Origin: an uncultured bacterium
GTDB taxonomy: Bacteria; Verrucomicrobiota; Verrucomicrobiia; Verrucomicrobiales; DEV007
NCBI GenBank assembly: GCA_963977015.1
Contig: CAXBMO010000004.1
Span: forward strand, 128,001-192,000
Direction of reading: 5' to 3'
DNA: 64,000 nucleotides
Shown here: piece after piece, positions 18,001 to 35,555 of the stretch
Position numbering within the stretch: the stretch's first letter is position 1
How the letters are laid out: the number at the start of each line of letters is the position of its first letter
Made by a program: the position numbers and the translations under genes
Notes under the pieces: model-generated
Seen by the model: the letters and a program-made list of their open reading frames with translations, nothing else
The model's database searches: none
What the model was told of the DNA's origin: nothing

Positions 18001-18469
18001 CTTTCGCGAAGCAAAAAACCTTTTCGACTTTTCCGTCCGCGCCGCAATACAGCACCTGGGCGACCGTGAATCCCTTGTTGGTGTCGGCATTGAAAAAGTA
18101 TCCCAGAAGAATACTGAGATGGCGCCCTTCCTTGCGAAGATACAACGTAGAGGCCTTGTTCTCCGCATCTGAGCTGGCGTGTCCATACGCGCCCATCAGA
18201 TAAGAACGTTCATCCCGCTCGCGCTTCTTCCCGCTCGAACCCGCCGCTACATTGTAGTTCCGGATTCCCGGCCGGACCAACAACGTCAGGATACTATCCA
18301 CCATCGTGGATTTCCCGCTTCCATTCTGACCAATGAGCAGTGACGTCCTGCCATTGGGACGAACGGTATGAATCTGGCCTTTTGAGGAATCAATCGTTCC
18401 CCAGTTCATGATCTGCACTTTATACAGACGATACCCGGGAAGTCCCACCGAAACGAAATTGTCTTCCAT
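15026..18469 (-). CDS. jetC: SMC-like ATPase, Wadjet JetC/MksB
   Basis: NWGT start, Walker A GQNGSGKST, YNVAAG, long coiled coils, signature QSGGEKAK, Walker B VVVDEMFSK. Confidence 0.9.
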   Translation of the reverse strand: MEDNFVSVGLPGYRLYKVQIMNWGTIDSSKGQIHTVRPNGRTSLLIGQNGSGKSTMVDSILTLLVRPGIRNYNVAAGSSGKKRERDERSYLMGAYGHASSDAENKASTLYLRKEGRHLSILLGYFFNADTNKGFTVAQVLYCGADGKVEKVFCFAKGEKDIAEDFGEIKSIDQIAKKLEARDIKTTKTFAQYHKWLINEANMRPKAMDVFNQTVAVKDIRSLTEFIRGHMLEGQNWKERIDDILNHFQQLSDAHRMLVDAREQSIALQPIAQTGAEYNRLQEELQKREQTEKACDAYFRVKTVDLFTRVREDRLVEGEGISAELELLNRRLDDNEQQIRRLQNDVENAGGERLRSLPFLLEQKQDDSKRRRERADRYRKALQKAGLAGHVGDEATFQSAHESLSALRLSTEQELQTLEEGKLNSAIRAHKLEARRDGMELEIRTLQEQGSNLPDRHQQIRKVICEGLGMSPSELPFAAELIAVKESATAWTGSAESALREFGLSLLVPADRFREVSTFVDQLTPENQTDAMKVSYLRVGEVLPDNVPTIDANDASQLINKLDFKEGHPWIEWIKAELIARYNFKCCESFEEFREVRTMALTADRHVNLGRGWFEKDERELVTNPRHYILGWNNEAKLQVLRKDLAIAEEDLQRLLVEMAQHGDQVTELRGREEAIRRAQEVRVFAEIDHEAVDRELAELRREKEMLETSNEAVSAVTSQLGAATAQKHELKGRESHLIKRLGVLEREISQATSLLESSQRQIQSMSEEGGFEAQKALFPSIEDDLLGAGVILNAETLAEQENHYTADLRQAIDSIRSKLAPVEKSLLQSMSRFLRKFRQFEHELRDDPSYLDDFLNLHVRLEQEDLPKHEGSFKERLNEKVTTEIGILNNQLDNEREEILTRIETLNRCLETIDYDSHDGTYMQLEPKPVRDAEIAEFQRLMRECLADAFEGNTEADEARFARIEGLINRLREDSRWREKVTDVRRWFDFGAQETVRSTGEERGYYSDSMGQSGGEKAKLAFTILVAAVVYQFDIDPEAPQSDKFHFVVVDEMFSKIDDRYAEYALRLFEKFGLQLLIVAPFDAKAKVTEPFVDYYIQVVKKNNRSRILTMTSGEFGDRFGEVTGMAKRSAVPEAPETTASSFTLGS

Positions 18470-18474
18470 GATTT

Positions 18475-19083
18475 CTAGCTTGGTAATTGGTTTTGAGCGG
18501 CAATCGTCTCCGCGTGGATTTGAAATTGCTGTTTCAATTCATCCAATCGTTCGGCGGTGATTCGCGCTTTGATGATTGGTCGAATCTCGTAGGCAACAGG
18601 CTGGGTATTGAGCTTGCGAAGAAACCCGAGTTCCTGCGCCCGCACCATCAACTGATCAAATTTTCGCCGAACCCGAACTTCATCTTCCGTATCGGGAAGC
18701 AACTCCATCATCCGGGTTTGCAACTCTGACGTATCCACCACGCAACGCTCGGAATCGACGTTCTGCTCTTCGAAACGCCGGAGTTCATCGCGCAACATCA
18801 CGCTGAATAAGGTGACGTCGTATCCCAAACGGCTTCTTCGAATCAACTTCGGCATCCCATCATACCCGTCGGGCAATTCCTCTTCCTCAATTTGCCGCAG
18901 ATAAGCAAACCCTTCGGGTTCATCGACGACCATGATCAGTCCGACCCGGCCAAAATAAGTCTCCAGCCTCGATCGATTGGTCATGAGTAAATCCCAGGTT
19001 TTGGAATCATCCGCATAGACCGCTCCTTGGAGGAGACGAATCGCGGGAACACTGGACTCGTGAAATTCAGGAAGGTGAGCCAT
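18475..19083 (-). CDS. jetB: JetB/MksE (DUF4194) kite subunit
   Basis: LLQGAVY...W..L; VDEPEGFAYLRQ; PKLIRRSRL; YEIRPIIKA; located between jetA and jetC. Confidence 0.88.
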   Translation of the reverse strand: MAHLPEFHESSVPAIRLLQGAVYADDSKTWDLLMTNRSRLETYFGRVGLIMVVDEPEGFAYLRQIEEEELPDGYDGMPKLIRRSRLGYDVTLFSVMLRDELRRFEEQNVDSERCVVDTSELQTRMMELLPDTEDEVRVRRKFDQLMVRAQELGFLRKLNTQPVAYEIRPIIKARITAERLDELKQQFQIHAETIAAQNQLPS

Positions 19084-19151
19084 AGAAAATGGGTTGAGTA
19101 AGTTTGGGTTTTGAAATGGTTAAAGGTCTAACGTCGCCAACACAGCAGAAT

Positions 19152-20627
19152 TCAGGACTTGCCAACCGCCGGGCGAAACACCACCCGCGGCACCCGCATC
19201 ACACGGTACCCTCCCTCGGCGCTTTCGTCAGGAAGACGAACTTCGTCCATCTCCTCATCGACAACGACGTGGTCGTCATCCTCTGCAATCTGCACATAGG
19301 CGAGCACCTCGACCGCGCCATTCTCCGGCGGATGATCTTCCAACAGGCGAGGCAGGGAAACGGAATCGACGTGCTTCACCGCATCGCCAATCACATCACG
19401 CATCCCTTTCCAATCCAGGCGCCGCATCTGCGAAAACAAATCAAAGGCTTCGTCCAATTCGTCAGTCCCCGCCTCCGCGACCTGGAGATCCATCGTATCC
19501 ACTTCCGCCGCCGGCGACCAGAACGTCCGGCTAAAGGTCACAAACGGTTTGTAGCCTTCTTCAATGTCCAGGCCGACCACCTCTTCAGGCGGCGCATTCC
19601 GAGCCTGACGCGCCAAATTCAAGACTTCTTCGATCGTGAGCGCGACTTTCCGGCGCTCGTCCGCCACCTTGCCATCGAGGATCCGTCGAATCGACGCCGA
19701 CAGCCGCTGATTCGTCTGCATGACCTGCTCCGCCTCCGCCGTCAGTGCCGGGATCATGTTTCGCAACATCTCCATCTCTTCCTCATCCCCTCCAATCTGT
19801 TCGATCTTCCGCACATTCTCGACCAAATCACGCAGCGTGCGCTGGCGCGAGGGCGATAGAATCAGGTTCACGAAGCCGTAAAAACTCTTCCCCTGGTCGG
19901 AGTCCTTCAAGACCGACTCCGAATTCATCACATACTCCAACAGATCCCCCTTGTTCTCCCCCGCCATCTGCATGTCCTGAACCTGCCGGGTAATTTCCTT
20001 GAACTTGTCTTCCACCTTGCGGAAATCCCCCAAAACACGTTGCAACAGATCCAGCGCAAAATGAAATCGCTCCCGAATCTGGGACTCATCGTAGGTTTTC
20101 GCGTCCCCACTTTGCTGAATCCGATCAATCTCGGCCTGCAATTGGTCGCGCTCTTCGGCCAGCGCCGCCACCTGGCTATCCGCGTCATCGCCCGAAAAAA
20201 TCACCACCTCCCGCAGCGTATCGACGATGGCCAACACGCAACTCTCGGCGCCGACAAACTGATCATCACGCTTCACCGACTCTCTCGCGAATCGCATCGC
20301 AGCCTCGGTATGAGCCGTCAACTGATAGACCGGCTCCTCGCTCGAACCCTGAAAATAACGCTGAAGATACCGCGTCTCCGGTTTGCACCACGCGTTCAGG
20401 TAATCCAGCGGCGCCTCATTCAACGCATCGGGGTGTTGCTCCTGATAATCGGTCAGATCCGCGATCAGTTGATCCTGTGGAATGGTGATCCGTTGCTCCC
20501 GTTTAAACTCCTGATACAGGAAGTGCAGAATGAAGCTCCCATTCTGAGCTCGCAACAAGCGAGTCGTCGGGGATTGGGTCAGAAAAACCTGAAGATCGTC
20601 TAGTTCCACGTTCCGAATTTTTAGCAA
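19152..20627 (-). CDS. jetA: JetA/MksF (DUF3375) kleisin; start may be GTG 20609
   Basis: SPTTRLLRA; YLNAWC; FVGAES; DFRKVEDKF; SDQGKSFYGF motifs typical of DUF3375. Confidence 0.88.
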   Translation of the reverse strand: MLKIRNVELDDLQVFLTQSPTTRLLRAQNGSFILHFLYQEFKREQRITIPQDQLIADLTDYQEQHPDALNEAPLDYLNAWCKPETRYLQRYFQGSSEEPVYQLTAHTEAAMRFARESVKRDDQFVGAESCVLAIVDTLREVVIFSGDDADSQVAALAEERDQLQAEIDRIQQSGDAKTYDESQIRERFHFALDLLQRVLGDFRKVEDKFKEITRQVQDMQMAGENKGDLLEYVMNSESVLKDSDQGKSFYGFVNLILSPSRQRTLRDLVENVRKIEQIGGDEEEMEMLRNMIPALTAEAEQVMQTNQRLSASIRRILDGKVADERRKVALTIEEVLNLARQARNAPPEEVVGLDIEEGYKPFVTFSRTFWSPAAEVDTMDLQVAEAGTDELDEAFDLFSQMRRLDWKGMRDVIGDAVKHVDSVSLPRLLEDHPPENGAVEVLAYVQIAEDDDHVVVDEEMDEVRLPDESAEGGYRVMRVPRVVFRPAVGKS

Positions 20628-20765
20628 GCCCTAACAATATGGCAACTTTTTCTTCTTGGATTGCCGAATGAAGCTCAAAACCCCTGCAAAAAACTAGTTG
20701 CTCATCGCGAAGAAGAGTGCACAATACGGGCCGTTCTCGGCCCGGCATTCCTGAGTTGAGAATAA

Positions 20766-20839
20766 GCGCTCGTAGATCAACTGGATAGATCGTCTGACTA
20801 CGGATCAGAAGGTTGAGGGTTCGAATCCTTCCGAGCGCG
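20766..20839 (+). tRNA. tRNA-Arg(ACG); CCA not encoded
   Basis: Acceptor stem GCGCTCG/CGAGCGC; anticodon arm TCTGA-CTACGGA-TCAGA; T-arm GAGGG-TTCGAAT-CCTTC. Confidence 0.96.
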
Positions 20840-20892
20840 CCTTTCATTCTCAGGGGGATACGCAGGATCTAAGGGAGCATTCAAAAAGAGGG

Positions 20893-21041
20893 GGACTACA
20901 CCAAGTTTGGGGGATTGCCGTTTTTCATCCGCACTCGGCAATGACGCGCAGGCGGTAGTTGTTAAAGTTTCGGAAGCCGTAGGCACGGCGTTGGATCAGT
21001 TTCAATTCCGTCGTAATTTTCTCTACCAGACCACTTGAGAG
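20893..21041 (-). pseudogene. ISL3-family transposase C-terminal remnant with probable right end
   Basis: LSSGLVEKITTELKLIQRRAYGFRNFNNYRLRV matches the ISL3 C-terminus; CCCCCAAACTTGGTGTAGTCC after the stop resembles an ISL3 IR. Confidence 0.8.
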
Positions 21042-21320
21042 CTTCTCTGCCTCCTTATTGAGGGGATGCTCTGTAGGTAAGAATATACCGACAGTACTGC
21101 TCAACACCTGGCAAGAGGCTGTTCATGATATTCGTCATTCGAAACGAAGGTGAGTCGCCCATTGCTTTGATTGCTGATTGAATCAGCGTTTCAACCATGG
21201 CAACCTCACTCGTTGCATTGGGATTAGGCGGTTCCTTTGAGTGTTCTACCCTAAGTTCTTGTCCATTGAGCCCCTTCGAAAATTCTTACTTTCATCCGTT
21301 CAATTGGGCAAGATGAGTTC

Positions 21321-24300
21321 TCATCCCACTTCATCTACCTGCGGGCAGGTTGCTTCCAATTTCGAAAAAATCCCCTCAATCACCTGTTCTTTGCCAGTGA
21401 ACACGGCCTCTGGTCCACCCGCGTCCAAATCCGAAAACGGCGATTCGTAAAGCGCTTCCGCTCCCATGACTCCGCGGTGGGTTAGTTGGTCAATAATCAG
21501 TTCAACAAACCGAATCTGATTGGCGGAGAGGCTTCGGTCCCCAAGGAACTCCGCGAAAGCCTGCTGCGCTGCGGTCCGGTCCATTCCGATCAACTTCCGG
21601 ACGAAATGCGGCAATGACGGGGCTTCGCTTTGGGCCAGCAAATCGGACAGCAACCTTTCACCCTGGTCCTCGCCAATCTCCTGCAAGGTTCGCTCCAATT
21701 CCGCAAGATCCAGTGCCGTCATCGGCTGATTGGTTCGCAAGCGGTGAATCACAATGTGATCCAGGTGAGCTTTCAAAAACTCCTTCACTTTCCGTTCATA
21801 TTGCGCCCCGGTCATCTTCGGCACCAAGACCGGTTCTCCTACCCGTACGCCCTGAATTTCGTCTTCGAAATCGGTGTAAACAATCTTGCGCTTTTTCTTG
21901 TCGAGAAACTGAACAAGACCTCGCAGCCGAAGCCGCAACTCCTCCAACAACGCCAGGGTGATGCCTTCCCAGAATTCCGTGGTCTGCACTATCTGCAAAT
22001 ACGCCAATTGCTCTGTTACCGCGGGAATGGCGTCCTTTCCTTCCAGCAACGCGGCAATTTCGATCACCGATAGTCTGATGCTTTCGGAAACACCACTCTT
22101 GTTGGCGACTCCCAGCTGCATTTTCAGCACCTTTAAATCGAACATTCGTGCTTCGATTTCATCGTTCTCGATTTGGCTGGGAAGGTTTGCGATGTCCCGC
22201 TCTAACACGTGCACGTCCCCCTCAGTCAATTGGCCCCAAGATTCCTTTTTCTGGAATCGCTCCACCGGTTCCAGTCGCATCCGAACGATAAAATTTTCGG
22301 GATTCATGGCTGCGACCTCCGCGTGAAGACCGGCTGCCAGCGACTGCGTCAGTTTCCCCTCCGGTTCCAATTCCGATTCCTTCTGCAACGTGGCCAGTAG
22401 CTCCACCCGCGTCTTGAACAGCCGACTCCCGATCGATTCGCCCCCGCGCCCTTCGATCCCGTCTGGATTCTCGCGGAAGAAATCGAAATTGAAACAAAAA
22501 TCGAAGATCCGGAAGTCCTTCTTGTCCTTGTCCGGCTCAAAAAGATTCTCGCAGAGCCGGGTGCCGCGTCCAATCATTTGCCAGAACTTGATCTTCGAGT
22601 AGACCGGCTTGAAAAACACCAAATTCACCACCTCTGGCACGTCAATTCCGGTGTCTAACATATCCACCGAAATCGCAATGTGCGGTTCTTTGTCCTTCAA
22701 CGAAAAATCGTCGATTAGGCTCTGCGGATAGGCCGCCTGGTTGTCAATCACGCGGGCAAAATGCCCCTTGAGTTCTGGATAGTGGTGGTTGAACCGCTCC
22801 TCAATGAACTTCGCTTGATCGTGATTCCGAGCAAAAATAATCGTCTTCCCGAGCCGGTCGCCACTCGCCACCGTATGCCCGCGCTCCATCAGGTGCTGCA
22901 GCACCTTGTCCACCGTGTCAGTGTTGAAGAGCCACTGATTGATCGCCGACGCATTCACGGCCGCCGGCGGGCCGTCATCACCGTCGTCACCCCAATCAAT
23001 CCCCTCCCATTCGGCCTGCTCTTCCTGACTAAGATCGTCATAGCTGATTCCCTCGCGTGGAAACTTCAGATCTACCTGCTCGACTCGCGGTGGCACGAGA
23101 AAGCCGTCACTCACCGCCTGATCCAGTTCATAAGCATCGGTCGGCACCCCTGCTTCCAGATCAAACAGATCGTAGGTGTTTTTATCGATCTCTTCCCGGG
23201 GTGTCGCCGTCAGCCCCAGTAGCAGGGAGTCGAAATACTCGAAGATCGCCCCGTATTTTTGGTAAATGGACCGGTGTGCTTCGTCGATGATCACCAAATC
23301 GAAGTGGCCCGGGCCGAACCGCGCCACCCCGCCCTTGGTTTCGTCGATCAATCCCATCATCGTGGGGTAGGTGCAGACATAGACCCGGCCTTCCTTGTTT
23401 TTCTCGGTCACCAGATTCACCGGGCTGGAATCCGGCAGATGCATTTTGAAGGCGTTTGCTGCCTGGTTCACCAGGGAAATCCGGTCGGCCAGAAACAAGA
23501 CTCGCTTCGCCCAATTGGCCCTCTGCAACACATCGGTCAGGGCGATCGCGGTCCGGGTCTTGCCCGTTCCCGTGGCCATCACCAGCAACCCCTTGCGCTG
23601 ATGCGCGGCGAAGGTGGCTCCAAGGCTCGCGATGGCCCGTTTCTGGTAATAGCGACCCGCGATTTCCTCATTCACCTGGGCCACGTCCAGGGGCTTGCGG
23701 ATCTGGCGGCGCTGCACCAGTCGCTCCAGGTCGTCCTTGCTGTAGAAACCGGCCACGCGCCGCGGCGGATAGGAGCGGTCGTCCCAGATCCAGGTTTCGT
23801 AACCGTTCGTGAAAAAGATCACCGGCCTTTGACCATGCATCTGTTCCAGGCAATCCGCGTAAAGCTTGGCTTGTTGCTGGCCGTTCTTCGGGTCGGCCGT
23901 GGTCCGCTTGGCCTCCACCAATCCGAGCGGCAGCCCGTTGTCGCCCCACAACACGTAGTCGACGAACCCCTTGCCGGGACTGTTCGGCATTCCCGTCACC
24001 GGGTATTCCCGATCCTGCGGCTTTTCCAGGGGCCAACCGGCCCGGCGCAGGTCCACATCGATCAGGTATTTCCGCGTTTCCGCCTCGGAGTAATCATGCG
24101 GATCGCTCTTGGCTTCATTCTCCGCAATGACCTTTGCCAACTCTTCGCGAACGGTTTTCAGCTCGGCGTCCAGCGCGTCAATCTTCTGCTGTTTTTCGAG
24201 AGTCTCGCAGCTCGTCCGCTCCAGTTCCGCCTCCAGCCTGGCCAGTTCTTCGCGGGAGATCGTCGGTTCGCTCACCACAGGTTTCGGCACCAGGCCGTCG

Positions 24301-24710
24301 CTCCAGGCTGCCTCACCGGGATCCGGCTGAGCTTCCCGCGAATAGGTTCGGGCCACCCAATACAGAACATGGTGCAGTTCCTGCACCACCCGCAGGGCAT
24401 CACCTTCACCTACTGGCCGGGGATTGTGCGCCGCTGCATTGCCCATCTTGTGAATGACCCGCGCTTTCTGAAACACCGCCTCCGGCAACACGCGCCGAAA
24501 GCTCGGCTCGTAGAGAAACGCCCCCAGGTTCCGGTCATAGGGCCGCTTCAGCCGCTGGTCGAAGCGAAAGAGCCAGTGAATCGTTGTCTCCAGGGCGAAC
24601 CGGGCGTGAAAACAGGAGGCCCGCGCGTCTGCAAGAGCCTGCCGCTCCGCCTTCATCGCCGCTTCGGCCAATTCGGGGAACTCAGTTTCGAGAAAGGCGA
24701 AGTTTGACAT
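21321..24710 (-). CDS. hsdR: type I restriction enzyme R subunit (EcoAI/EcoEI-like)
   Basis: Nuclease motif FVDYVL...VEAKR; MATGTGKT; IDEAHRS; GLTATP; TGIDVP; QMIGRGTR. Confidence 0.96.
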   Translation of the reverse strand: MSNFAFLETEFPELAEAAMKAERQALADARASCFHARFALETTIHWLFRFDQRLKRPYDRNLGAFLYEPSFRRVLPEAVFQKARVIHKMGNAAAHNPRPVGEGDALRVVQELHHVLYWVARTYSREAQPDPGEAAWSDGLVPKPVVSEPTISREELARLEAELERTSCETLEKQQKIDALDAELKTVREELAKVIAENEAKSDPHDYSEAETRKYLIDVDLRRAGWPLEKPQDREYPVTGMPNSPGKGFVDYVLWGDNGLPLGLVEAKRTTADPKNGQQQAKLYADCLEQMHGQRPVIFFTNGYETWIWDDRSYPPRRVAGFYSKDDLERLVQRRQIRKPLDVAQVNEEIAGRYYQKRAIASLGATFAAHQRKGLLVMATGTGKTRTAIALTDVLQRANWAKRVLFLADRISLVNQAANAFKMHLPDSSPVNLVTEKNKEGRVYVCTYPTMMGLIDETKGGVARFGPGHFDLVIIDEAHRSIYQKYGAIFEYFDSLLLGLTATPREEIDKNTYDLFDLEAGVPTDAYELDQAVSDGFLVPPRVEQVDLKFPREGISYDDLSQEEQAEWEGIDWGDDGDDGPPAAVNASAINQWLFNTDTVDKVLQHLMERGHTVASGDRLGKTIIFARNHDQAKFIEERFNHHYPELKGHFARVIDNQAAYPQSLIDDFSLKDKEPHIAISVDMLDTGIDVPEVVNLVFFKPVYSKIKFWQMIGRGTRLCENLFEPDKDKKDFRIFDFCFNFDFFRENPDGIEGRGGESIGSRLFKTRVELLATLQKESELEPEGKLTQSLAAGLHAEVAAMNPENFIVRMRLEPVERFQKKESWGQLTEGDVHVLERDIANLPSQIENDEIEARMFDLKVLKMQLGVANKSGVSESIRLSVIEIAALLEGKDAIPAVTEQLAYLQIVQTTEFWEGITLALLEELRLRLRGLVQFLDKKKRKIVYTDFEDEIQGVRVGEPVLVPKMTGAQYERKVKEFLKAHLDHIVIHRLRTNQPMTALDLAELERTLQEIGEDQGERLLSDLLAQSEAPSLPHFVRKLIGMDRTAAQQAFAEFLGDRSLSANQIRFVELIIDQLTHRGVMGAEALYESPFSDLDAGGPEAVFTGKEQVIEGIFSKLEATCPQVDEVG

Positions 24711-24792
24711 TCGTGTTGCTGATTCTGATGCCCAACAGAGGAGGAATCAACTTACCAGTTAAACTTTGCCAGATTCTCTGGAGCCCGCCGAA

Positions 24793-25998
24793 TCATTTTT
24801 GCAAAAGGGGAGCAAATCGTTGTTCGAGAGTCCTTCGATTGTAGCGGCTGAGTGCAGGGCGGTTTGCCCACGCAGCATGAACATGCCTCCGCCATTCCCC
24901 TCGCGGTTGACGTTGAATCGAACCCATACTGAAAAGGCTTTGCTCAATTTGTTCACCTGACTTCCCAAGCTTTGAGGCAAGATCATCAATTACCTGGCAG
25001 TAAAGTTCGTAGTTAAAACCGGTGTTCAGTTGGCCAGGTCCCTGGTCCGTATGACGGATGAGATTCTCGCCAGTAAGCAAGATGACGGACTTTGTCGTCC
25101 ACTGATCCATAATGTAGTGATTCTTAGGGCCGAAGAAATAAAGGAGCTTGGTAAAGAATGCGGGGCCCAAACCGGGGATGTTGGCATTGCCAGCAAAGAG
25201 GTCATAAGCCTCGGCACGGCTGAGTTTACAATCCCGTAGCTTGATCAGCTTGCCCCGAATGGCACGCCTCGCATTCCAAGCCTTCTGGGCGTTCTCGGCT
25301 CCCCCCGGTCCCAACCCCTGACCACCCCAAGCCATTGCACAGATGTAGCCGAATAGCGGATCCTTCTCGGTGTTGCTGCAATGCTGGCGAACGTCATGTC
25401 GGGCGAGTTGATCGACTGGAAAAGGACCCAATTGCGAAACCTCCTCTAGCTCTAAGTCTTCCACCCATTGCGCGGGAACGTCACCGATTCTTCCCTGCAT
25501 GAGGAAGGGCGCTTTTCGAAAAGCTTCAAAATGCTCCGGGTCGTAGAAAAAATTCGTGGCTTCTCCGCCATCCGCCTCCGCCATCGTTTCAAATGTCCAT
25601 GGCACGAACTCCCCAGACGGCTGTCCCCGGAAGAGATTCACCATGGATTCGCGGAACGATTTGTCTTTTGCCAACTTCCGGGTGGAACTCGAGATCTCGC
25701 TCCGACTGCGCAAATCTGGATCGAGAACGTCAATAGCGACTAACTCGGCCGCCTCACGTCTCCCGTTGTCGTCAAAGCCCGGTTCCGTCCACCAGATCAC
25801 CCTGGCGACGAGATCCGGATTGAGCGAAACCGCTGCCGATTTGCTGGTGATGCTGCTGCCGCGGTGAATCAAGTGCTGCTCGATCCGGCGGCGGAGATTC
25901 TTGCCCATCTCAACGTAGACCACACGTTCCTGGCCATCGAGCATCGCATAGATTCCCGGTAGCGTGGGGATGGAGGTAAGCTGGAACGAAGTGGACAT
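24793..25998 (-). CDS. GIY-YIG-like domain fused to an OGG-like helix-hairpin-helix DNA glycosylase domain
   Basis: N-terminal PGIYAM...VVYVEMGKNLRRRIEQH; C-terminal MAWGG, HhH IPGLGPAFFTKLLYF, IMDQW. Confidence 0.72.
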   Translation of the reverse strand: MSTSFQLTSIPTLPGIYAMLDGQERVVYVEMGKNLRRRIEQHLIHRGSSITSKSAAVSLNPDLVARVIWWTEPGFDDNGRREAAELVAIDVLDPDLRSRSEISSSTRKLAKDKSFRESMVNLFRGQPSGEFVPWTFETMAEADGGEATNFFYDPEHFEAFRKAPFLMQGRIGDVPAQWVEDLELEEVSQLGPFPVDQLARHDVRQHCSNTEKDPLFGYICAMAWGGQGLGPGGAENAQKAWNARRAIRGKLIKLRDCKLSRAEAYDLFAGNANIPGLGPAFFTKLLYFFGPKNHYIMDQWTTKSVILLTGENLIRHTDQGPGQLNTGFNYELYCQVIDDLASKLGKSGEQIEQSLFSMGSIQRQPRGEWRRHVHAAWANRPALSRYNRRTLEQRFAPLLQK

Positions 25999-26019
25999 GA
26001 GGAAGCGAGCAGAGCCCCG

Positions 26020-27153
26020 TCAAACTCGAACCAACTCCATGAGCGGTTCAAACCGATAAATTGCGGCTTTCCTCCCTGACGCCTCTTCAACGGTCTGAAG
26101 AATCTCCTCCTGCAGAAGCAGCCGGGTGAATCGGGCTGCCGTCTGGGCGGGAATTCCGGCGTTCCCGGTAAACCGGCTATTGCGAAAAACCGGATACGTG
26201 AAAACAAAATCAAGGGCATTCACCGACCACTTCGACGCCAGCAATTCAGAAAAACGCCCTTTCATATCCTCGTAAAGCGACCTGACCTTTTCGGCGACTT
26301 CCAGATTGTGAATCGCCTGCTTTTCCACTGCCGTTAGGAAAAAAATACACCAGTCGTCCCAGGCCCCCTTTGCCGAAACGTCGCGCATGGTCGCAATGTA
26401 GGCGTCCTTGTGATCTTCGAAGTAACGGCTGATGTAAAAATGGGGGGCCGCAATGGCTCCCTTTGCCCACAGCATCAGCGTGATCAGCATCCGCCCGACC
26501 CGGCCATTTCCGTCCTTAAACGGGTGCAGCGCCTCAAACTCGACATGACAAAGGGCAGCGCGCAAAAGGATTGGCATTTTCTCATCCTCAACCATGGCAA
26601 CCAGCGCATCCATACCGCTCTCAAGCTTTTCAGGCGCAATTGGCACGAAACTGACCTCTCGGCGGCCCCGCTCTCCGATATAATTCTGCTCGGCCTTGAA
26701 CGCACCGGGAGACTTGCTCGCTCCGCGTCCGAAAGACAGAAGTTGTTGATGAATACTCTTCAGCAACGAGATGGACAGCGGCCGCCCCTCGTCCATCTGC
26801 CGCTGCGCGACGCGAAGCGACCGCTGGTAGAGAACCGTCTCGATCACGTCAGATCGAGATTTCGAAGCCGAGGCCACCTCGTCACCATACTCAGCCTCGT
26901 ATTGAAGGATCTCGTCCAGCGTGCTGATCGTTCCCTCCATTCGTGAGGAGATCACCGCCTCTTGATTGCGCAGGGGTGCGAGGAAGATTTCGCTGTTGTG
27001 CAGCCCCTTTAGCATCTGGTCATAGCGCGCCAAGGAGTCGGTTGCCGCCAGCAGCGCCGACAAAATTCGCCCATAATCGAGCGACTCGGGTGGAAACTCC
27101 CCATCGTGATACCAAACGGCTTTGGACGTATCGAAGTTCATGTTCGGCTTCAT
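26020..27153 (-). CDS. Fic/DOC family protein with N-terminal Fic_N region
   Basis: HPFKDGNGRVGR Fic motif; EAVISSRMEGT inhibitory-helix-type motif; C-terminal HTH-like region. Confidence 0.92.
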   Translation of the reverse strand: MKPNMNFDTSKAVWYHDGEFPPESLDYGRILSALLAATDSLARYDQMLKGLHNSEIFLAPLRNQEAVISSRMEGTISTLDEILQYEAEYGDEVASASKSRSDVIETVLYQRSLRVAQRQMDEGRPLSISLLKSIHQQLLSFGRGASKSPGAFKAEQNYIGERGRREVSFVPIAPEKLESGMDALVAMVEDEKMPILLRAALCHVEFEALHPFKDGNGRVGRMLITLMLWAKGAIAAPHFYISRYFEDHKDAYIATMRDVSAKGAWDDWCIFFLTAVEKQAIHNLEVAEKVRSLYEDMKGRFSELLASKWSVNALDFVFTYPVFRNSRFTGNAGIPAQTAARFTRLLLQEEILQTVEEASGRKAAIYRFEPLMELVRV

Positions 27154-27243
27154 TTTTAATACCAAACTCGGTTGTTGTCGAAATTCTTGGACATTTAAAC
27201 ATTAAATCCGATCGAAGTTCATTGGTGATTGCCAGGGAGCGTT

Positions 27244-27433
27244 GATGTTAACGGGTGGCGAAAAATGAGAGACAAACTCGTTTGGCGTTCATGGTGGAAC
27301 ATCAATCTTCTTTGGCATCAAGATTCTCGAAAGTTTGATCATCGACACCTTTTGAGGCTCTCCCATGAAGGCCAAACGACTTCGATGTTAATAATCTAAT
27401 AAAAATGAGAGACAAACCCACTTGATGCTCATT
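27244..27433. repeat. 140-bp-spaced direct repeat upstream of the fic gene
   Basis: GATGTTAA-N9-AAAAATGAGAGACAAAC at 27244-27277 and at 27384-27417. Confidence 0.8.
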
Positions 27434-27550
27434 CTTGTCCTCCAAATTCGGTGCGAACCTCAAATCTCGCCGTTCGTCGAGGGTGCGAAATTGGAAGGAG
27501 CGAAGGGAATGTTTAGCTCGGCGAAGTGGGCTTGATGAACCAACGCCCTC

Positions 27551-28783
27551 CTAACCATGCCCCATCTCCTTGTGGTTGCCAATCGACAGCGCTTCCCAGG
27601 TGCCGTCGGGCTCCCGACGAAAGTGAGCCCGGAAGTTTTGGTTCACCCTGACCGACCACACATCATTTCCTCCCTTGGGCCACTTCTTGAAATCGGCTCC
27701 CGGTGTGATGGCCGCCTGAAGCTGTGATTTTTTCCGCTCCCAGGCATCCTGAATCGGTGGGGCGAGTTTGCGCAGCTTGCGCTGAAAATCACCGGATTCC
27801 ACGATTTCCTCCAAGTGACCGAACAGATCCAGGCAGCCTTCCAGAATCCCAAGTCGTTCTCCATCGTGAACGAGGTGGATGGGGCAGTAGCGCCAGTCGA
27901 TCCGGGGATGGATCGGGAACTGCCGCGGCCAATCCCAGCCGCCGCCCCGGTCTCCGAGATGGGGATTCGCCTTTCCCGTTTCGGAAAGGGCCCGGTAGCC
28001 TTCTGCCAGTTCCGTGAGATTGCGATCCCAGCCTTCCTTCTCGACATCGAGACCATCGCAGTAGCCTATCGGCTGGCCCCGAACAAATCCTTTCAGAGCC
28101 TCCTGCTTCCCGCGCACCTCCAGTGATCGTTTCCGAGTCCGGAACGCCTTGAGCATGTAGGCGTTCGCCAATTTTTCCTCTTCTTCACAGTAGCCGGGGT
28201 AATCCTCGAAAAACGCTTCCTTGGCCGGTCCCCACCATGGCTCCTGGAAAACCAATTCCATCTGGGCCACCGCGTAGTCCGTGGCAAAGTGAAACAGCTC
28301 ATGGTTGAGGATCGCGTGAAAGGCGAGGTGTGCCTTGGTCTTGTCTGTTGCCGGTAGGCCGCCGAAGGCATGCTTCATGAGGTAGGCAATCCCGGAAACC
28401 GGCACGTAAACGCCCCACTGCAATCCGGTCACGTGAAACGAGGAATACCAACCGACCGCATCCATCCCGTGGATTTCCACGCTTTTCCGGATCCGTTCCT
28501 CTTCTTCGCCATCCAGCGCCGGAAAAGTTTCTTCCGCCTCGGCTCCGATCTCGATCACCGGCTCAAAATCCGGAACCGACCCATCCGACTCCTGCTGCTC
28601 GTCGAAATCGTCACCATCCCACACGGAAAGAGGAGCTTCGCAGGTTTTTTCGGTCTCCGCGCCGGATAACGTGGTCACCGCCACCCTTGGTTCAGGACCG
28701 CGATTCTCGAACTCCGGCGATTCATCGAACAGCGCTCCCTCGATATCCTGCAAACTGTTGCGGACGCTGGTGATCAGTTTCAT
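27551..28783 (-). CDS. putative zincin metallopeptidase fused to a C-terminal RelE/ParE-like toxin domain
   Basis: NHELFH (HExxH) plus downstream EEKLANAY; C-terminal ~85 aa ESGDFQRKLRKL...FKKW...VWSVRVNQNFRAHF...IGNH. Confidence 0.65.
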   Translation of the reverse strand: MKLITSVRNSLQDIEGALFDESPEFENRGPEPRVAVTTLSGAETEKTCEAPLSVWDGDDFDEQQESDGSVPDFEPVIEIGAEAEETFPALDGEEEERIRKSVEIHGMDAVGWYSSFHVTGLQWGVYVPVSGIAYLMKHAFGGLPATDKTKAHLAFHAILNHELFHFATDYAVAQMELVFQEPWWGPAKEAFFEDYPGYCEEEEKLANAYMLKAFRTRKRSLEVRGKQEALKGFVRGQPIGYCDGLDVEKEGWDRNLTELAEGYRALSETGKANPHLGDRGGGWDWPRQFPIHPRIDWRYCPIHLVHDGERLGILEGCLDLFGHLEEIVESGDFQRKLRKLAPPIQDAWERKKSQLQAAITPGADFKKWPKGGNDVWSVRVNQNFRAHFRREPDGTWEALSIGNHKEMGHG

Positions 28784-28789
28784 TTCCTT

Positions 28790-30610
28790 TTAAGCCTCCT
28801 CCACCTCATCCTCCGCCACTCCTAGCTCGGATACAATCGCTCCCTTTCCCGTCGAGTTTTCCACCAAATCGAGAAGCGCGGCTTTCCGTGCCCGGTAGAA
28901 CCCATCGAAATCATCCGCTCGCAGGAACCTCGGCTCGATGCAGTGGGTGCGAAGAATCGAGTCCATCGCGTCGTCGTCGAGTTGGACTCCCTTGTGGGTC
29001 TGGATTTGCTCCAGGTAATGCGACGGGGCGTTGCCGCCGATCATCCGGTTGGCCTTGGCGGAGATGGCCGTCTTGTTGATGATGGAATTGTAGATCCGGG
29101 GTGAAATCCCCCGATCGTCGCACCACTTCCGGGGAAAGATGTGATGGATGTCGATTCCCCGCTCGTTGAGGTCCAGATCCAGCATCCTGGTCTTCCAGAA
29201 GAAGTCGCAGGCTCCCTGCTGCTGCACCAGCACATACAGACCCCGGTAGGCAGCGGAATTCCGCGTCCTCAAGGTATCGAGGCGCGACTCCTGGAACCCG
29301 GAGGCAACCACGGTCACCGGTTCCTCGACGACGTCTCCGGTCAACCAATCCATCAGGTTCTGGTAGTCCAGGGCGATCCTCGTTTCCACCGCGCCGCCAT
29401 ACATTTCCCCCAAAACCCCACACCAAAACCAGCGCGCCAGCCGGTCCTGGATGGCCGGTTCCAGCCAGCGTTCTTTCAAGTGGGTCAGGACCGTGGCCAG
29501 GGGCACCAATTGGCTGCGATAGGGAAGAAACCGTTGATGATGGAATCCCAGCATCCTCAGAAACTGTTCCGCTTCCAGGAACCCGCCGGTCAGGGGCTCC
29601 GTCCATCGCTGGTAGGCCGGCAGCGGCGTGGAAAGGACGTGCTCGCGTTTCGCGCTGACCGTGGTGGCTTCCTTCGGTTTCTTTCCGGCAGCCAAATCAG
29701 CCAGCCTTCGTTCCCGGGAATCGAGCAGGGCGATTCCCTGAAGGAAATCGGTCGGCTCCAGGTCGGTGAGGATGGACTTGGCCGCCAGCTTCGCTTTCCG
29801 TCCCGTTCCCGCAGGCTCGCCGAACCAGTCCTTCCGCATGTTGTAGCCGTCCGCCGCATAGCTGGCCGTGACCAGCTCAAAGACGGAGAGCGCCACCCCA
29901 CCGGTGTTCACCTTTTCAAACACCAGGCAAACGGCCTCCTTGGAGGTTTCCTTTTTGAGGAGAATGACCGGGATCATGTAGCCTCGGAATGCGGCGAGAA
30001 CTTCCTTCCGAAAGGTCATGTAGGTCGAGAACCGTTCCGGAAACCGTTCATTGAGCCCTTCTTCCCATGCGTCGGAATCCAGGATCTGGCTGCAGGGGAA
30101 GCACATCGCCTCGTATTCCTTTTCCGGGCTGCTCAGATCCAGGTCAATCTGCCGCCCGAAATCCGACCGCAGGGTTTTCCGTTCGTCCACAGCGATGATG
30201 GCGGCTTCCAGGGATTGCGGTCCCTCCAGCGCCTTGGCGATGTCGAAGTAGTAGTGCCGTTTGATCGGTCGCTTGTTGTCGTCCCGAGTGGCGACCGGCC
30301 CATCGCCTTTCACCACCTGGGTCAGGGAGGTGAGCCGCTGCTGGCCGTCGAGGATGAGGCGTTCCGCGTCTGAGCCGGGAGACAAGGTGACGCCTTCGAC
30401 CGGCCGGAGCTGAAATCGCGTTTCTCCTCCCGTTTCCAGAATCATGACCGCGCCAATCGGAAAGGAACGGGCGATGCTGACGAGGAGGGAACGAATATGC
30501 TCGTCATCCCAAACCCAGCCGCGCTGAAAGTCCGGCAGTTGGATCTTGCCCTCCACGATGTCGTCGAGGAGGTCGCTGAGCTTGAGCTTGGTGGAGTCGA
30601 AGGTGGACAT
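28790..30610 (-). CDS. gmrSD: GmrSD-family (DUF262 + HNH) modification-dependent restriction endonuclease
   Basis: LPDFQRGWVW, LDGQQRLTS, FEKVNTGG (DUF262); DIHHIFP...N...N HNH-like C-terminus. Confidence 0.88.
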   Translation of the reverse strand: MSTFDSTKLKLSDLLDDIVEGKIQLPDFQRGWVWDDEHIRSLLVSIARSFPIGAVMILETGGETRFQLRPVEGVTLSPGSDAERLILDGQQRLTSLTQVVKGDGPVATRDDNKRPIKRHYYFDIAKALEGPQSLEAAIIAVDERKTLRSDFGRQIDLDLSSPEKEYEAMCFPCSQILDSDAWEEGLNERFPERFSTYMTFRKEVLAAFRGYMIPVILLKKETSKEAVCLVFEKVNTGGVALSVFELVTASYAADGYNMRKDWFGEPAGTGRKAKLAAKSILTDLEPTDFLQGIALLDSRERRLADLAAGKKPKEATTVSAKREHVLSTPLPAYQRWTEPLTGGFLEAEQFLRMLGFHHQRFLPYRSQLVPLATVLTHLKERWLEPAIQDRLARWFWCGVLGEMYGGAVETRIALDYQNLMDWLTGDVVEEPVTVVASGFQESRLDTLRTRNSAAYRGLYVLVQQQGACDFFWKTRMLDLDLNERGIDIHHIFPRKWCDDRGISPRIYNSIINKTAISAKANRMIGGNAPSHYLEQIQTHKGVQLDDDAMDSILRTHCIEPRFLRADDFDGFYRARKAALLDLVENSTGKGAIVSELGVAEDEVEEA

Positions 30611-30627
30611 GGGGAAACGTTGGGCTA

Positions 30628-31764
30628 CTAAAGTTCTCCGTTAAAGGCGCGGGATTGGAGGGAGGCGAAAAGGGTGTCCAGTTCGGCGAGATGGGCGCGC
30701 AGGCGGGCTTTCTGGCGCTCGACCGATTCGACGACGGCGGCGAAGCTGTGTTGGAGGTCGAGGGGCGGCGTAGGGATTGGTAGCTTCTTCACATCGCCGA
30801 GATTGATTCCTCGAACTGCAATTCCTTTCGTCCTGCGCGCCATGTAGTGCTGCATCCCTTGAGTCGTGATGCACTGCATGACGTAGGCTGCTTCAGCTTC
30901 CGCCAAAGCGAGTCGGGCCGTATCTTGGGTAATATTAGCGCCTTCGGCATCATGCGGGGTTATCGCCATCCGACCAACGTGGCCCCTGATCGACATGAGT
31001 AGATCACCGGGCTTAAGACGCGACCGATTGTATTGATTCGCAATTTCTACCGTGGTTCTTCGGAGTTGGTTAACTAGCACTTGCTCATTCTTAATGTCGA
31101 CGACTCGCACATAGGGAATTCCGTCTTCAATATCCGGGCCCGGTTTAAGAATTCCGTAGGTGATTGGCCGATTCGGATCGATCAGCTTCTCCAGCGGAGC
31201 GTTCTCCCACCCCATCGGATTGGTGACGGGGTCGCCGAAGAGGGTGAGGAAGGTGGATTGGAGGAGGGTGTCGAGCTGGGCGAGGGACTCGCGGCGCTTG
31301 GCCCGCAAGGCGTCCGCCGCATCCAGGATCCCCGCAATCCGCTTCTGCTCGGCGAGGGGCGGGAGGGGGATTTGGATTCGGCTCGCTCCTGCCTTCGTAA
31401 GCTTTGCACGGGTCGTGCCGGTGAGCTGTGGTGTTACGTCAAGGTGCTTCAGCACAAGACATAGATAATCGAGATCTGTGCCGGACTTGGGCCGCAAGAC
31501 ATGTGCATGGTTGTTTACCCACGTTTTGCCGCTGATTTTATACGCGATGCCCCGGTTCGGTTCGAAGAAGTGTCCACCATCCTCAGCGAGAAGGACCAGC
31601 GGTTCATCGAAGATGAAGCCGTCGATGGTCCCCTGTTGCCCGTTCGCTCCAAAGTATGGGTATGGACCGGGATTTCGGTCGGCAGCTTTCACAGGACGCC
31701 TTTGGGAGTCAAGAAACTCAACCGCCTGTCCCAAAGTTGTAAGCGCAGTCGGAACTTCGCTCAT
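30628..31764 (-). CDS. hsdS: type I R-M specificity subunit; start MSEVP at 31764 overlaps the hsdM stop
   Basis: Two TRDs each followed by conserved IPLPPLAEQ / IPTPPLDLQ helices; ends AFNGEL. Confidence 0.94.
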   Translation of the reverse strand: MSEVPTALTTLGQAVEFLDSQRRPVKAADRNPGPYPYFGANGQQGTIDGFIFDEPLVLLAEDGGHFFEPNRGIAYKISGKTWVNNHAHVLRPKSGTDLDYLCLVLKHLDVTPQLTGTTRAKLTKAGASRIQIPLPPLAEQKRIAGILDAADALRAKRRESLAQLDTLLQSTFLTLFGDPVTNPMGWENAPLEKLIDPNRPITYGILKPGPDIEDGIPYVRVVDIKNEQVLVNQLRRTTVEIANQYNRSRLKPGDLLMSIRGHVGRMAITPHDAEGANITQDTARLALAEAEAAYVMQCITTQGMQHYMARRTKGIAVRGINLGDVKKLPIPTPPLDLQHSFAAVVESVERQKARLRAHLAELDTLFASLQSRAFNGEL

Positions 31765-33287
31765 CCTAACTTCCCCTCCAGCTCCTTCCGCCCTTTGGTG
31801 ATCTCTTCTTCCAGCTTCGCCAGCCGCTCCAGAATCACCCCCGGCGGATCGTATTCGACCGCTTCGTATTCCACCTCCTTGTAGCGGTTGATCGAGAGGT
31901 CGTAGTCGTTGCCTGCGATCTCGTCCTTCGGCACGAGGAAGCTCTGGTCGGTGCGTTTCCGCTTTTTCTCGGCCTTGCGGTTCTTCCACCGGGCCAGGAT
32001 GTCAGCCAAGTCGCTCTTGTCCGGCTGCGGGGTGCGCTTGTCGTCGAGCGAGTAGCCATCGGCCTGCATGTCGTAGAACCAGACTGCATCCGTTCCCCCA
32101 GAGTTGGTCTTGGTGAAAAGCAGGATGGCGGTGGAAACCCCGGCGTAGGGCTTGAAGACGCCGGATGGCATCGAGATGACGGCGTCGAGCTTCTGGTCCT
32201 CGACCAGGATCTTGCGCAGCGCCTTGTGCGCGGTGGAGCTGCCGAAAAGAACACCATCCGGCACGATGACGGCGGCGCGCCCGCCGGTCTGGAGCAGACG
32301 CAGGAAGAGGGCGAGGAAAAGCAGCTCGGTCTTCTTCGTCTTGACGATCTGGAGCAGGTCCTTGGCGGTGGACTCGAAATCCAGGCTGCCCGCGAACGGC
32401 GGGTTGGCGAGGACGAGGGAAAACCGCTCGGCGTCGTCCTCATCGGCCTGGGCCAGGGAATCCTTGTAACGGATGTCCGGGTTTTCCACGCCGTGCAGGA
32501 GCATGTTCATGCTGCCGATCCGCAGCATGGTGCTGTCGAAATCGTAGCCGTGGAAGGTGTGCTCGTTGAAACGGCGGCGGCTGGCCTCATCCTTGAAGAT
32601 GGCGTCGCCGTGATGATCGCGCAGAAACTCCGACGCGGCGATGAGGAAACCGCCGGTGCCGCAGGCGGGATCGCAAATGACATCCTTCGGTGTCGGAGCC
32701 ATCATCTCCACCATGAGCTGGATGATGTGGCGCGGGGTGCGGAACTGGCCGTTCTGCCCGGCGCTGGCGATCTTGCCGAGCATGTATTCGTAGAGATCGC
32801 CCTTGGTGTCGCGGTCGGCCATGTCGATGCCGTCGAGCTGATCGACCACGCTGGCGAGGACCCGGGGCGTCGGCATCATGAAGAGGGCGTCCTTCATGTG
32901 GTGGGTGTAGGTGCTGTCGCCCTCCGCCGCGCTCTTGCCGCCGCCGTTCTGGCCCAGCGACTTCATGAACGGAAAAACCTCGTCGCGCAACACCTCGAAC
33001 ATGTCGTTTGGACCGAAATCCCGAAAGCGCGACCAGCGCAGGTCTTGGAAGGAGCGTTGCGGCTTGGCCCGCGATTCCGGGTTCGGTCCTTCGGGGAAAA
33101 TCGGCTTCTGGATCGGCTTTTTTGTCCGGTTTGCCCTGGCTTCGGCCAGGGTGTGGATCTCGTCGAGCCGCTTGATGAAAAGCAGGTAGGTGATCTGCTC
33201 GATGACGGAGAGCGGGTTGGAAATTCCCCCGGACCACATCGTGTCCCAGATTTTGTCGACTTTGGAGCGCAGTTCGCCGGTAATCAT
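31761..33287 (-). CDS. hsdM: type I R-M N6-adenine methyltransferase
   Basis: MITGELRSKVD start; GQFRTPRH; DPACGTGGF; ANPPF. Confidence 0.97.
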   Translation of the reverse strand: MITGELRSKVDKIWDTMWSGGISNPLSVIEQITYLLFIKRLDEIHTLAEARANRTKKPIQKPIFPEGPNPESRAKPQRSFQDLRWSRFRDFGPNDMFEVLRDEVFPFMKSLGQNGGGKSAAEGDSTYTHHMKDALFMMPTPRVLASVVDQLDGIDMADRDTKGDLYEYMLGKIASAGQNGQFRTPRHIIQLMVEMMAPTPKDVICDPACGTGGFLIAASEFLRDHHGDAIFKDEASRRRFNEHTFHGYDFDSTMLRIGSMNMLLHGVENPDIRYKDSLAQADEDDAERFSLVLANPPFAGSLDFESTAKDLLQIVKTKKTELLFLALFLRLLQTGGRAAVIVPDGVLFGSSTAHKALRKILVEDQKLDAVISMPSGVFKPYAGVSTAILLFTKTNSGGTDAVWFYDMQADGYSLDDKRTPQPDKSDLADILARWKNRKAEKKRKRTDQSFLVPKDEIAGNDYDLSINRYKEVEYEAVEYDPPGVILERLAKLEEEITKGRKELEGKLG

Positions 33288-33434
33288 GTGGCGGAGATAT
33301 AGGGCAGAATGTTAGGGTGTGCCAGTGGGAAACTGGTGAACCCGGTGGACGAAGCGGCAGCCGTCCCCTTAAATCGATCCTGTTCCCGGCGGCAGTCCGC
33401 TGGCGACGCCGATTTGGAGGTTCATCTACCCACC

Positions 33435-34976: not shown

Positions 34977-35555
34977 GATGGTAGTCCTGTTGGGTGGAGA
35001 GGGAGGTTGCCCGGGACTGCTCGAAAACCTGCTCATCCCTGCGCCTTCAAACTCTCCCAAAATGCTTCGCCGGTTTCGATTATAATTGGACGAAAGATTT
35101 GGAATGATTTCGTGTCAGGAAATTTTTGAACCTTCTGGCGATGATCCACCAAGGTTCATCTTCCGTGTTAGGTCAGCGCTTGGCCGAGAAAGAATTGGAA
35201 ATCCTGTTCTGAAAAATCCGGGGCTTCGTCAGTTACTACCTGCAACGTAATGGTTGGAATCTCCTGATCTTCTTCCTATCCGCAACACGTTGGACATTGA
35301 GTGCATCCTCTTTGATGAGGTGATTGCCGAAATGTTCGGTGTCATGACGATGCCCCCCCCCTGCTATGTAAGGACTGAGATCCATCCTGGTTCCTCGAAA
35401 GCGACTCTCTTCCTCCGGCCCAAAGCGACCGTGTCGCCAAACAGCACGAACCCAATACCTCGAAGGAATGTGGCGGCGCTACGCCGACGACAGGTGACCT
35501 GCCGAACAAATTCTCTGGGGAGATCGGTGGGTTTTTAGCCGCGGCCCGGCCTTCG

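Follow-up and report, generated by a model that had tools for sequence, protein, structure and literature searches.

A fused GIY-YIG and OGG-like protein in a verrucomicrobial type I restriction-modification operon as a candidate modification-dependent anti-phage enzyme

We analysed a 64,000-nucleotide stretch of DNA (the window; positions 128,001 to 192,000 of contig CAXBMO010000004.1, assembly GCA_963977015.1) from an uncultured bacterium of the Verrucomicrobiales. Within a type I restriction-modification (R-M) operon, the window carries a gene that encodes a GIY-YIG nuclease domain and an OGG-like helix-hairpin-helix (HhH) domain in a single polypeptide. This gene and its product, here called P0001, occupy positions 24793..25998 as an uninterrupted open reading frame (ORF) of 401 amino acids (aa) with an ATG start; P0001 and all other window features described below lie on the minus strand. 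By analogy with the END nucleases and the Dag glycosylases, P0001 is most likely a modification-dependent anti-phage enzyme.

Phages evade restriction by hypermodifying their bases, and bacteria answer with enzymes that read these modifications. Two HhH-fold answers were described in 2025: the Dag glycosylases excise the base, and the END nucleases sense it and then cut through a fused nuclease. P0001 pairs the same reader family (PF21790) with a fourth type of partner, GIY-YIG, and keeps a catalytic-looking Asp, which makes it a natural test case for whether PF21790 domains excise or sense.

A preliminary description of the gene had recognised both halves from short motifs, all of which are present: GIY (residues 15-17), YVE (28-30), KNLRRR (33-38), H42 and REAAE (81-85) in the N-terminal half, and IPGLGPAFFTK (274-284) and IMDQW (296-300) in the C-terminal half. 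The proposed identity of the two halves was confirmed by the family matches and fold models that follow. The halves were folded separately rather than as one model, because a full-length alignment misplaced the N-domain relatives (10-22% identity).

Residues 1-140 (25579..25998) were assigned as a GIY-YIG nuclease domain from phmmer family matches, a fold model, Foldseek and column counts. Stand-alone proteins of ~165 aa matched P0001 over residues ~2-143 (phmmer E values of 1e-28 to 1e-21). Four stand-alone relatives (P0190, P0184, P0193 and P0199) passed the PF01541 cut-off with 28.6-31.8 bits, and the N-domain family is therefore GIY-YIG. UvrC models, over their first ~40 residues, also matched the N-terminus of P0001 weakly. 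The domain model had a pLDDT of 87.4, with values of 95-98 around residues 11-40 and 54-77 over residues 131-150, and it showed the GIY-YIG alpha/beta fold. Its top Foldseek match was the UvrC GIY-YIG domain 1yd6 (E 7e-4, prob 1.0, TM by target 0.68), with T4 EndoII, Slx1, Eco29kI and PD-T4-3 in further rows. Among 68 distinct family members, Y17 was conserved in 63, Y28 in 65, R38 in 67, H42 in 68 and E85 in 64, and P0001 keeps all five. Y17, Y28, R38 and E85 presumably correspond to Y19, Y29, R39 and E76 of UvrC.

The true start of P0001 is the ATG at 25998 (M1) and not the M19 of the public protein call, because residues 3-18 align with the conserved P11, P14 and Y17 of the stand-alone GIY-YIG family. 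The database version of the same protein (P0002, 383 aa, two member sequences from one contig) begins at Met19. This call (window 25944-25998 region) drops the GIY strand, and automatic annotation therefore hides the nuclease domain. At its other end, the domain is joined to the C-terminal half by a linker of 9 residues (141-149; 25552..25578), which was delimited by alignment, by low pLDDT and by a contig of run X1 that bridges it. The linker stands in the place of a predicted C-terminal coiled coil of the stand-alone relatives, which is missing in P0001.

The C-terminal half (residues 150-395, 24814..25551) is a PF21790 OGG-like HhH domain. The Pfam match, over residues 192-356, scored 76.9 bits against a cut-off of 27 (E 2.3e-21), and P0001 has all the invariants of the family. 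In a column set of 79 sequences (P0001 and 78 from genome loci), W224, G225, T283, K284, D298 and R370 were invariant, and position 352 was Glu in 72 and Asp in 7. The HhH motif PGLGPAFFTK (residues 275-284, 25147..25176) includes Ala280 and the invariant Lys284. The codon of Asp298 (25105..25107), within IMDQW, lies at G278 + 20, the canonical register of the catalytic Asp relative to the HhH motif. The model of this domain had a pLDDT of 94.8 and an HhH glycosylase fold, with 8-oxoguanine glycosylases as the best structural match; Foldseek against the PDB returned OGG and MutY weakly (E 0.66 and above). P0001 gave no PF00730 match up to an E value of 10, and a profile search of PDB sequences with the OGG-like alignment found no glycosylase.

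We then asked how widespread the fusion is. In an exhaustive phmmer search, 1.84 billion representatives yielded 1,037 matches at E <= 0.001. Of the 150 listed, P0001 itself was the only one to cover both halves, and each of the others matched over residues ~150-400 or over residues ~2-143; the C-terminal matches were mostly stand-alone proteins of ~250 aa and the N-terminal ones mostly stand-alone proteins of ~165 aa. The lack of a fused relative in this list is informative, because such a protein would sum both scores and rank at the top. In a word-indexed search of 5.8 billion clusters (215 matches), P0002 alone had a query coverage above 63%. No member of the N-domain family was found within 8 kb of the OGG-like gene in any of 80 OGG-like loci, nor was an OGG domain found in any of 34 metagenome loci of the N-domain family. 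A scan of 400 further genomes of the phylum likewise yielded no member of the N-domain family, only four partial GIY-YIG matches (ORFs of 229-673 aa). Seven longer fused OGG-domain proteins were found, none with a nuclease domain, although a blank of this kind is weak evidence. To the question, raised in the preliminary description, of whether homologues are also fused, the answer is thus that the relatives of both halves stand alone and the fusion is a singleton. A literature search, with subscription journals and bioRxiv supplements outside its scope, found neither a fusion of GIY-YIG with an OGG-like domain nor the presence of PF21790 genes within type I operons described.

As far as the contigs show, the fusion is genuine and not an assembly artefact. 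The X1 contig, which covers 24851-25677 (residues 108-382), passes through the junction; it differs by 14 substitutions and is gap-free. In a second study, three metagenome runs contain identical pieces to either side of the junction. No single listed contig covers the whole stretch, and run X1 gives no cover over parts of 25680-25895. A metagenome scaffold (L091) was 100% identical over 12,233 bases; it probably comes from the same source and so is not independent. Inside the ORF, 15 substitutions were counted in a variant contig, 11 synonymous and 4 non-synonymous, which suggests that the gene is under purifying selection; the N-domain contributes only one of them.

P0001 lies in an operon that is transcribed in the order hsdM, hsdS, a GmrSD_N/DUF262 gene, a gene for a 410-aa protein, SoFic, P0001 and hsdR. 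The first of these, hsdM (31761-33287), matched Pfam N6_Mtase and HsdM_N, and hsdS (within 30628-31989) matched Methylase_S. The 606-aa GmrSD_N/DUF262 protein (28790-30610) had PDC-M55C as its best PADLOC match and also matched HEC-05, and the 410-aa protein (27551-28783) has no Pfam, NCBIfam or PADLOC family. The SoFic-type Fic protein (26020-27165) matched Pfam Fic and Fic_N and PADLOC SoFic (2.5e-101), and the type I restriction subunit HsdR (21321-24710) matched Pfam EcoEI_R_C and PADLOC REase_I (6.1e-183). Spacers of 385 nt separate the 410-aa gene from SoFic, 21 nt SoFic from P0001, and 82 nt P0001 from hsdR, which places P0001 just before hsdR, as had been described. SoFic and P0001 probably share a transcript. 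P0001 was not found in 60 relatives of the same order that were searched. Its sole PADLOC match was UzuA (E 0.045), and it had no match in PHROGs.

To place the C-terminal half in a wider context, we scanned one genome per species for OGG-like relatives; of 117 found, 80 loci were kept, and 263 neighbouring or extended ORFs were scanned against Pfam. Six of the 80 loci (L009, L057, L069, L076, L078 and L082) had the OGG-like gene within a type I R-M operon, usually directly upstream of an EcoEI_R_C hsdR as in the window; four of the six are alphaproteobacterial and so are not independent. In L078 (4889-10768) the gene overlaps both hsdS and hsdR by 4 nt and may therefore be translationally coupled to the genes for the R-M subunits. 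Stand-alone PF21790 genes between hsdS and hsdR may be working type I accessories that extend restriction to modified DNA, and not passengers with a function of their own. Other neighbours were GmrSD (L022), SIR2 (L029 and L051), REase-ARP (L024 and L074), a C5 methylase (L028) and PIN with Abi_2 (L030), as well as toxin-antitoxin genes, integrases, transposases and T4SS genes. Nuclease genes stood directly beside the OGG-like gene in two cases, a LEM-3-type GIY-YIG (L054) and a PD-(D/E)XK (L085).

WYL-WCX regulators adjoined the OGG-like gene in 10 of the 80 loci (L044, L045, L048, L052, L053, L061, L063, L073, L075 and L079). Three Sphingobacterium loci (L052, L075 and L079) had an OGG-like ORF with an N-terminal extension of ~200 aa that matched no Pfam family. 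SNF2-NOV_C helicase genes adjoined the gene in four loci (L036, L058, L060 and L066), where the OGG-like protein has a C-terminal extension of ~150-200 aa, and these loci may represent an uncharacterised multi-gene system. In L060, which is fragmentary and retains only NOV_C, the OGG-like gene lies between the helicase fragment and a DUF1156 protein. Further OGG-like fusions involved AAA_15/AAA_21, FGE-sulfatase and DUF4926. In L034 (7992-13168), a 1,354-aa protein combines TIR, STAND (NPHP3_N) and TPR regions with a C-terminal PF21790 domain that has all the invariants. Its immediate upstream neighbour is another OGG-like gene, which has a long C-terminal extension.

The small GIY-YIG family was surveyed in 34 metagenome loci, in all of which the family protein stands alone; neighbours were examined in the 16 loci of at least 5 kb. 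A DUF6884 gene abutted or overlapped the GIY-YIG gene in three of these 16: L099 (4483-5955), L108 (2526-2942) and L113 (6477-6863). DUF6884 is a YaaA-like DNA-binding domain for which Pfam curators proposed base flipping from structure prediction (PMC11701544). The pair is thus a candidate two-gene reader-plus-nuclease module. A TGT-like gene lay near the GIY-YIG gene in two of the 16 loci (L093, 4339-5382; L097, 1091-10307). In L097, QueC is immediately upstream of the GIY-YIG gene and a DEAD helicase, HerA and NurA are downstream, a layout that we take to recall 7-deazaguanine DNA-modification clusters. GmrSD_N, HEPN and WYL with Cas6 were also among the neighbours, and the family also occurs fused to RNase H, DUF7664 and GYF_2. 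The small GIY-YIG nuclease therefore tends to accompany base-reading or 7-deazaguanine functions, although the numbers are small.

With less than even confidence, we propose that P0001 is an excise-and-cut anti-phage enzyme in one polypeptide, with both domains catalytic. The PF21790 domain would bind DNA and flip out a non-canonical base that is absent from host DNA, the likeliest target being a hypermodified guanine such as a 7-deazaguanine derivative. This target is a reasonable guess drawn from Dag, from END-Mag and from the TGT and QueC neighbourhoods. We regard it as about evenly balanced, because END-PaCF1 is described as promiscuous. The glycosidic bond would then be cleaved via Asp298 with help from the family-invariant Lys284 and from Glu352. 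The GIY-YIG domain, on its 9-residue tether, would cut the strand where the base had been excised or flipped out, or right next to it, and densely modified phage DNA would thereby be broken up. From its place in the type I operon, P0001 would cover phages that escape classical restriction through base modification. Catalysis is favoured by the invariant Asp at the canonical position and by the stand-alone relatives; most PF21790 members are single proteins of ~250 aa and must therefore be their own effectors. The self-contained version, a "restriction glycosylase-nuclease" that removes the hypermodified base and then cuts through its tethered GIY-YIG domain, is possible but doubtful.

If the proposal is true, tethered coupling of excision to a GIY-YIG cut would be a mode of action without description for any defence enzyme. 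Together, the PF21790 genes in type I operons and the GIY-YIG genes near TGT, QueC and YaaA-like domains point to wider, uncharted defences directed at modified bases. Enzymes of this type might serve as reagents with which modified DNA is detected or cut.

Several observations weigh against the excise-and-cut proposal. The Lys and Asp of the C-terminal half had been read as the residue pair of OGG-type enzymes, and only D298 fills its canonical position. The canonical place of the HhH catalytic Lys (G278 + 2) is Ala280 in P0001 and was Ala in 51, Ser in 20, Gly in 7 and Pro in 1 of the 79 family sequences, never Lys; K284 lies four residues further, one helical turn on. The Nth-like and OGG1-like proteins of the same genome read GVGHK and GVGPK at this motif. 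The OGG-like half thus appears canonical in its Asp and non-canonical in its Lys, and any lyase chemistry would have to be non-canonical. The register rests mainly on the motif and in part on a non-significant hhalign comparison with the genome's own OGG1-like protein (Prob 0.1), in which GLGPA pairs with GVGPK and IMDQW with PVDVW; the comparisons of the family with the Nth-like and OGG1-like proteins gave Prob 0.1-0.2 and were used for motif register only. The catalytic pair of EndoIII, K120/D138, is a further source of the Asp register.

In the nuclease half, the second motif reads YVE, with a GAG codon (25909..25911) for Glu30 in place of the YVG glycine. This departure had been pointed out before and proved sharper than stated: the column was Gly in 65 of 68 family members, Pro in one, a gap in one, and Glu only in P0001. 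The E30 codon is covered by an identical contig piece from the second study (X2 record 7, 25861-26108) and is therefore not the read error of one assembly. The change, G30E, may cripple the nuclease. In addition, the N-domain of P0001 itself scored below the PF01541 cut-off (13.9 bits, or 15.7 for the domain alone, against 22.6). The fusion, as a singleton, is without comparative support for cooperation between the domains, and together with G30E this cautions against assuming a working nuclease. A role of the OGG-like half as a reader is favoured by the missing canonical Lys, by the END precedent and by the unchanged invariants in the sensor position of the STAND protein of L034, where these residues may serve recognition rather than catalysis.

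These points lead to the first alternative, an END-type mode in which the OGG-like domain is a non-catalytic reader that flips out hypermodified bases and the GIY-YIG domain does all the cleavage, so that P0001 would be a type IV-like, modification-dependent restriction endonuclease whose nuclease module is of a new type. We consider this possible, if rather unlikely. END nucleases join a nuclease or McrB to a PF21790-like C-terminal domain (CTD) that the published account describes as lacking the EndoIII catalytic residues (PMC12191111). Besides the missing Lys, this alternative draws on the OGG domain at the sensor end of the TIR-STAND protein and on DUF6884 beside stand-alone GIY-YIG genes in 3 of 16 loci, which suggests that a reader is the usual companion of this nuclease. 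In the Atlas, the clusters structurally close to residues 150-401 included one with NucS_C (TM 0.55) and one with PLDc_2/NgoFVII (TM 0.45), which are leads only. However, the Asp at the catalytic position is invariant in PF21790 and K284 and E352 are kept, unlike in the END CTD as described, and for most PF21790 proteins no partner nuclease is present, whether in the same polypeptide or in the neighbourhood. Moreover, the sole effector would be a nuclease bearing the unique G30E.

A second alternative is that a deletion joined two neighbouring defence genes, leaving a Dag-like glycosylase in the OGG-like half and an inactive or merely DNA-binding GIY-YIG half. The fusion was unique in both the phmmer search (150 of 1,037 matches listed) and the word-indexed search (215 matches), and neither family accompanies the other in the 80 OGG-like and 34 N-domain loci. 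G30E, the loss of the relatives' coiled coil and the PF01541 score under the cut-off agree with such a history, and the single N-domain substitution in the variant contig provides no test of selection there. On the other hand, the other catalytic-type GIY-YIG residues are intact, the fold of the domain is predicted with confidence (pLDDT 95-98 around residues 11-40), and from M1 onwards the reading frame is open and shows no decay. L054, furthermore, has an OGG-like gene directly beside a GIY-YIG gene of a different subfamily. Taken together, we regard this alternative as unlikely.

Housekeeping base-excision repair of oxidised guanine, with no defence role, is very improbable. In its favour, Pfam names the family after 8-oxoguanine glycosylases, which are also the closest structural match, and about 10 of the 80 OGG-like loci look housekeeping-like, a point that also counts against a defence role: ArgJ (L012 and L016), LepA (L018), an ABC transporter with L19 (L067), RNR (L071), CcmH (L083) and others. 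Such contexts among homologues had been named beforehand as a sign against defence, and they are present as this minority, beside the 6 of 80 loci inside type I R-M operons. However, the source genome (95.26% complete) already has three canonical HhH-GPD genes, including the Nth-like and OGG1-like ones, P0001 was not found in the 60 relatives of the same order, and PF21790 was matched in 0 of 14 well-known control genomes. The operon of P0001 is an R-M operon that also carries SoFic and GmrSD-like genes. An artefact that joined two genes is hardly credible: the architecture is a singleton and the identical scaffold L091 probably has the same source, but the X1 contig, whose 14 differences show that it stems from another strain or assembly, passes through the junction gap-free, the second-study runs hold identical pieces on either side of it, and the fusion drops ~30 residues of coiled coil, which is not mere read-through of a stop codon.

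The rest of the island was also described. Three further genes, for the DUF262 protein, the 410-aa protein and SoFic, are embedded between hsdS and hsdR (26020-30610). HsdR residues 21-112 form an N-terminal DUF4145 domain (E 1.9e-8) that precedes the usual HSDR_N and helicase modules. Directly downstream of hsdR is an MksBEF/Wadjet-like trio (15026-20627) of DUF3375 (JetA/MksF-like), DUF4194/MksE and an SMC-like ATPase; the trio is not followed by any recognisable JetD/MksG-like gene, and the next ORF (12569-14569) gave only a weak Glyco_hydro_75 match. Upstream of hsdM, a 541-aa ORF (33435-35060) matched no Pfam family and had a weak sacsin-type ATP-binding match (NF047352, E 0.0021). A promoter and terminator scan of 20500-34000 found sites no more numerous than in shuffles. 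The GC content of the island (0.52-0.59) differs from that of the flanks (0.55-0.66) by a gap too small to argue for transfer.

Finally, we compared P0001 with known systems. The closest in architecture are the END nucleases END-PaCF1 and END-Mag (Yee et al.), in which a PLD, a NucS-like PD-DExK nuclease or an McrB GTPase is joined to an EndoIII/Ogg-like CTD. This CTD aligns with PF21790 in HHpred and sets specificity for hypermodified phage DNA; the paper names GIY-YIG in its introduction only (PMC12191111). By this published description, END proteins resemble P0001 in combining a nuclease and a PF21790-type HhH domain in a single polypeptide, in their defence-island location with no cognate methyltransferase of their own, and in being proposed to read hypermodified bases. 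P0001 differs in its nuclease, an N-terminal GIY-YIG domain instead of PLD, NucS-like PD-DExK or McrB. Its HhH domain has no Lys at the canonical position but has the invariant Asp, whereas the END CTD is described as lacking the catalytic residues.

The Dag proteins comprise 19 HhH glycosylases (Dag1, Dag2 and 17 more) that defend against 7-deazaguanine phages (Getz et al., bioRxiv 10.1101/2025.10.29.685425), the target class that had been named for P0001. Dag1, a validated defence glycosylase, appears bifunctional; K118A, D184A and W188A abolish its defence, and D132A is partly active. The K118-D132 spacing of 14 equals that of K284-D298, and both proteins have an acidic residue further on, at a distance of 52 residues in Dag1 and 54 in P0001 (E352); this likeness of residue spacing is taken only from published numbers, which tempers its weight for a catalytic P0001. 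Like P0001, the Dags have an HhH fold far from the housekeeping enzymes, and they are small, horizontally moving defence genes. However, they are described as compact, single-domain proteins in Vibrio integron cassettes, whereas P0001 has an extra nuclease domain and lies in an R-M operon.

The idea that P0001 complements the R-M system has a precedent in its logic. For TgvAB, a type IV system whose genes lie within those of a type I system, experiments show that it complements the type I system against hypermodified phages (PMC11411939); the corresponding effect of P0001 would be a matter of analogy. Like the TgvAB locus, the window places a putative modification-dependent function amid type I R-M genes, and its operon also has a DUF262/GmrSD_N gene. 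TgvAB itself works through DUF262 NTPase and DUF1524 His-Me nuclease domains, and neither an HhH nor a GIY-YIG domain is part of it. The DUF262 gene of the window and its 410-aa partner recall the two-gene TgvAB layout, although the partner has no DUF262 or DUF1524.

Restriction by base excision followed by a strand break at the abasic site is known from R.PabI and R.CcoLI (PMC5388411, PMC7806768). These enzymes are HALFPIPE and not HhH proteins; they are sequence-specific, inhibited by methylation and paired with a methyltransferase, and they have no fused nuclease. Ceres shares the OGG-like domain with P0001 in an experimentally validated anti-phage system. It combines DUF2387 with an OGG-like domain (PMC13700489) and protected Streptomyces (bioRxiv 10.1101/2025.01.08.631966); as described, it has no GIY-YIG domain, and a search of the source genome for its partner DUF2387 (PF09526) was negative. 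The anti-phage role that the preliminary description had suggested for P0001 draws its support from setting, namely a type I R-M operon with SoFic and GmrSD-like genes, from the failure to find P0001 in the 60 relatives, and from these defence systems with PF21790 domains; the effect itself would be presumed. PF21790-like domains act in at least the END nucleases and Ceres among known defences, and probably in the Dag glycosylases as well.

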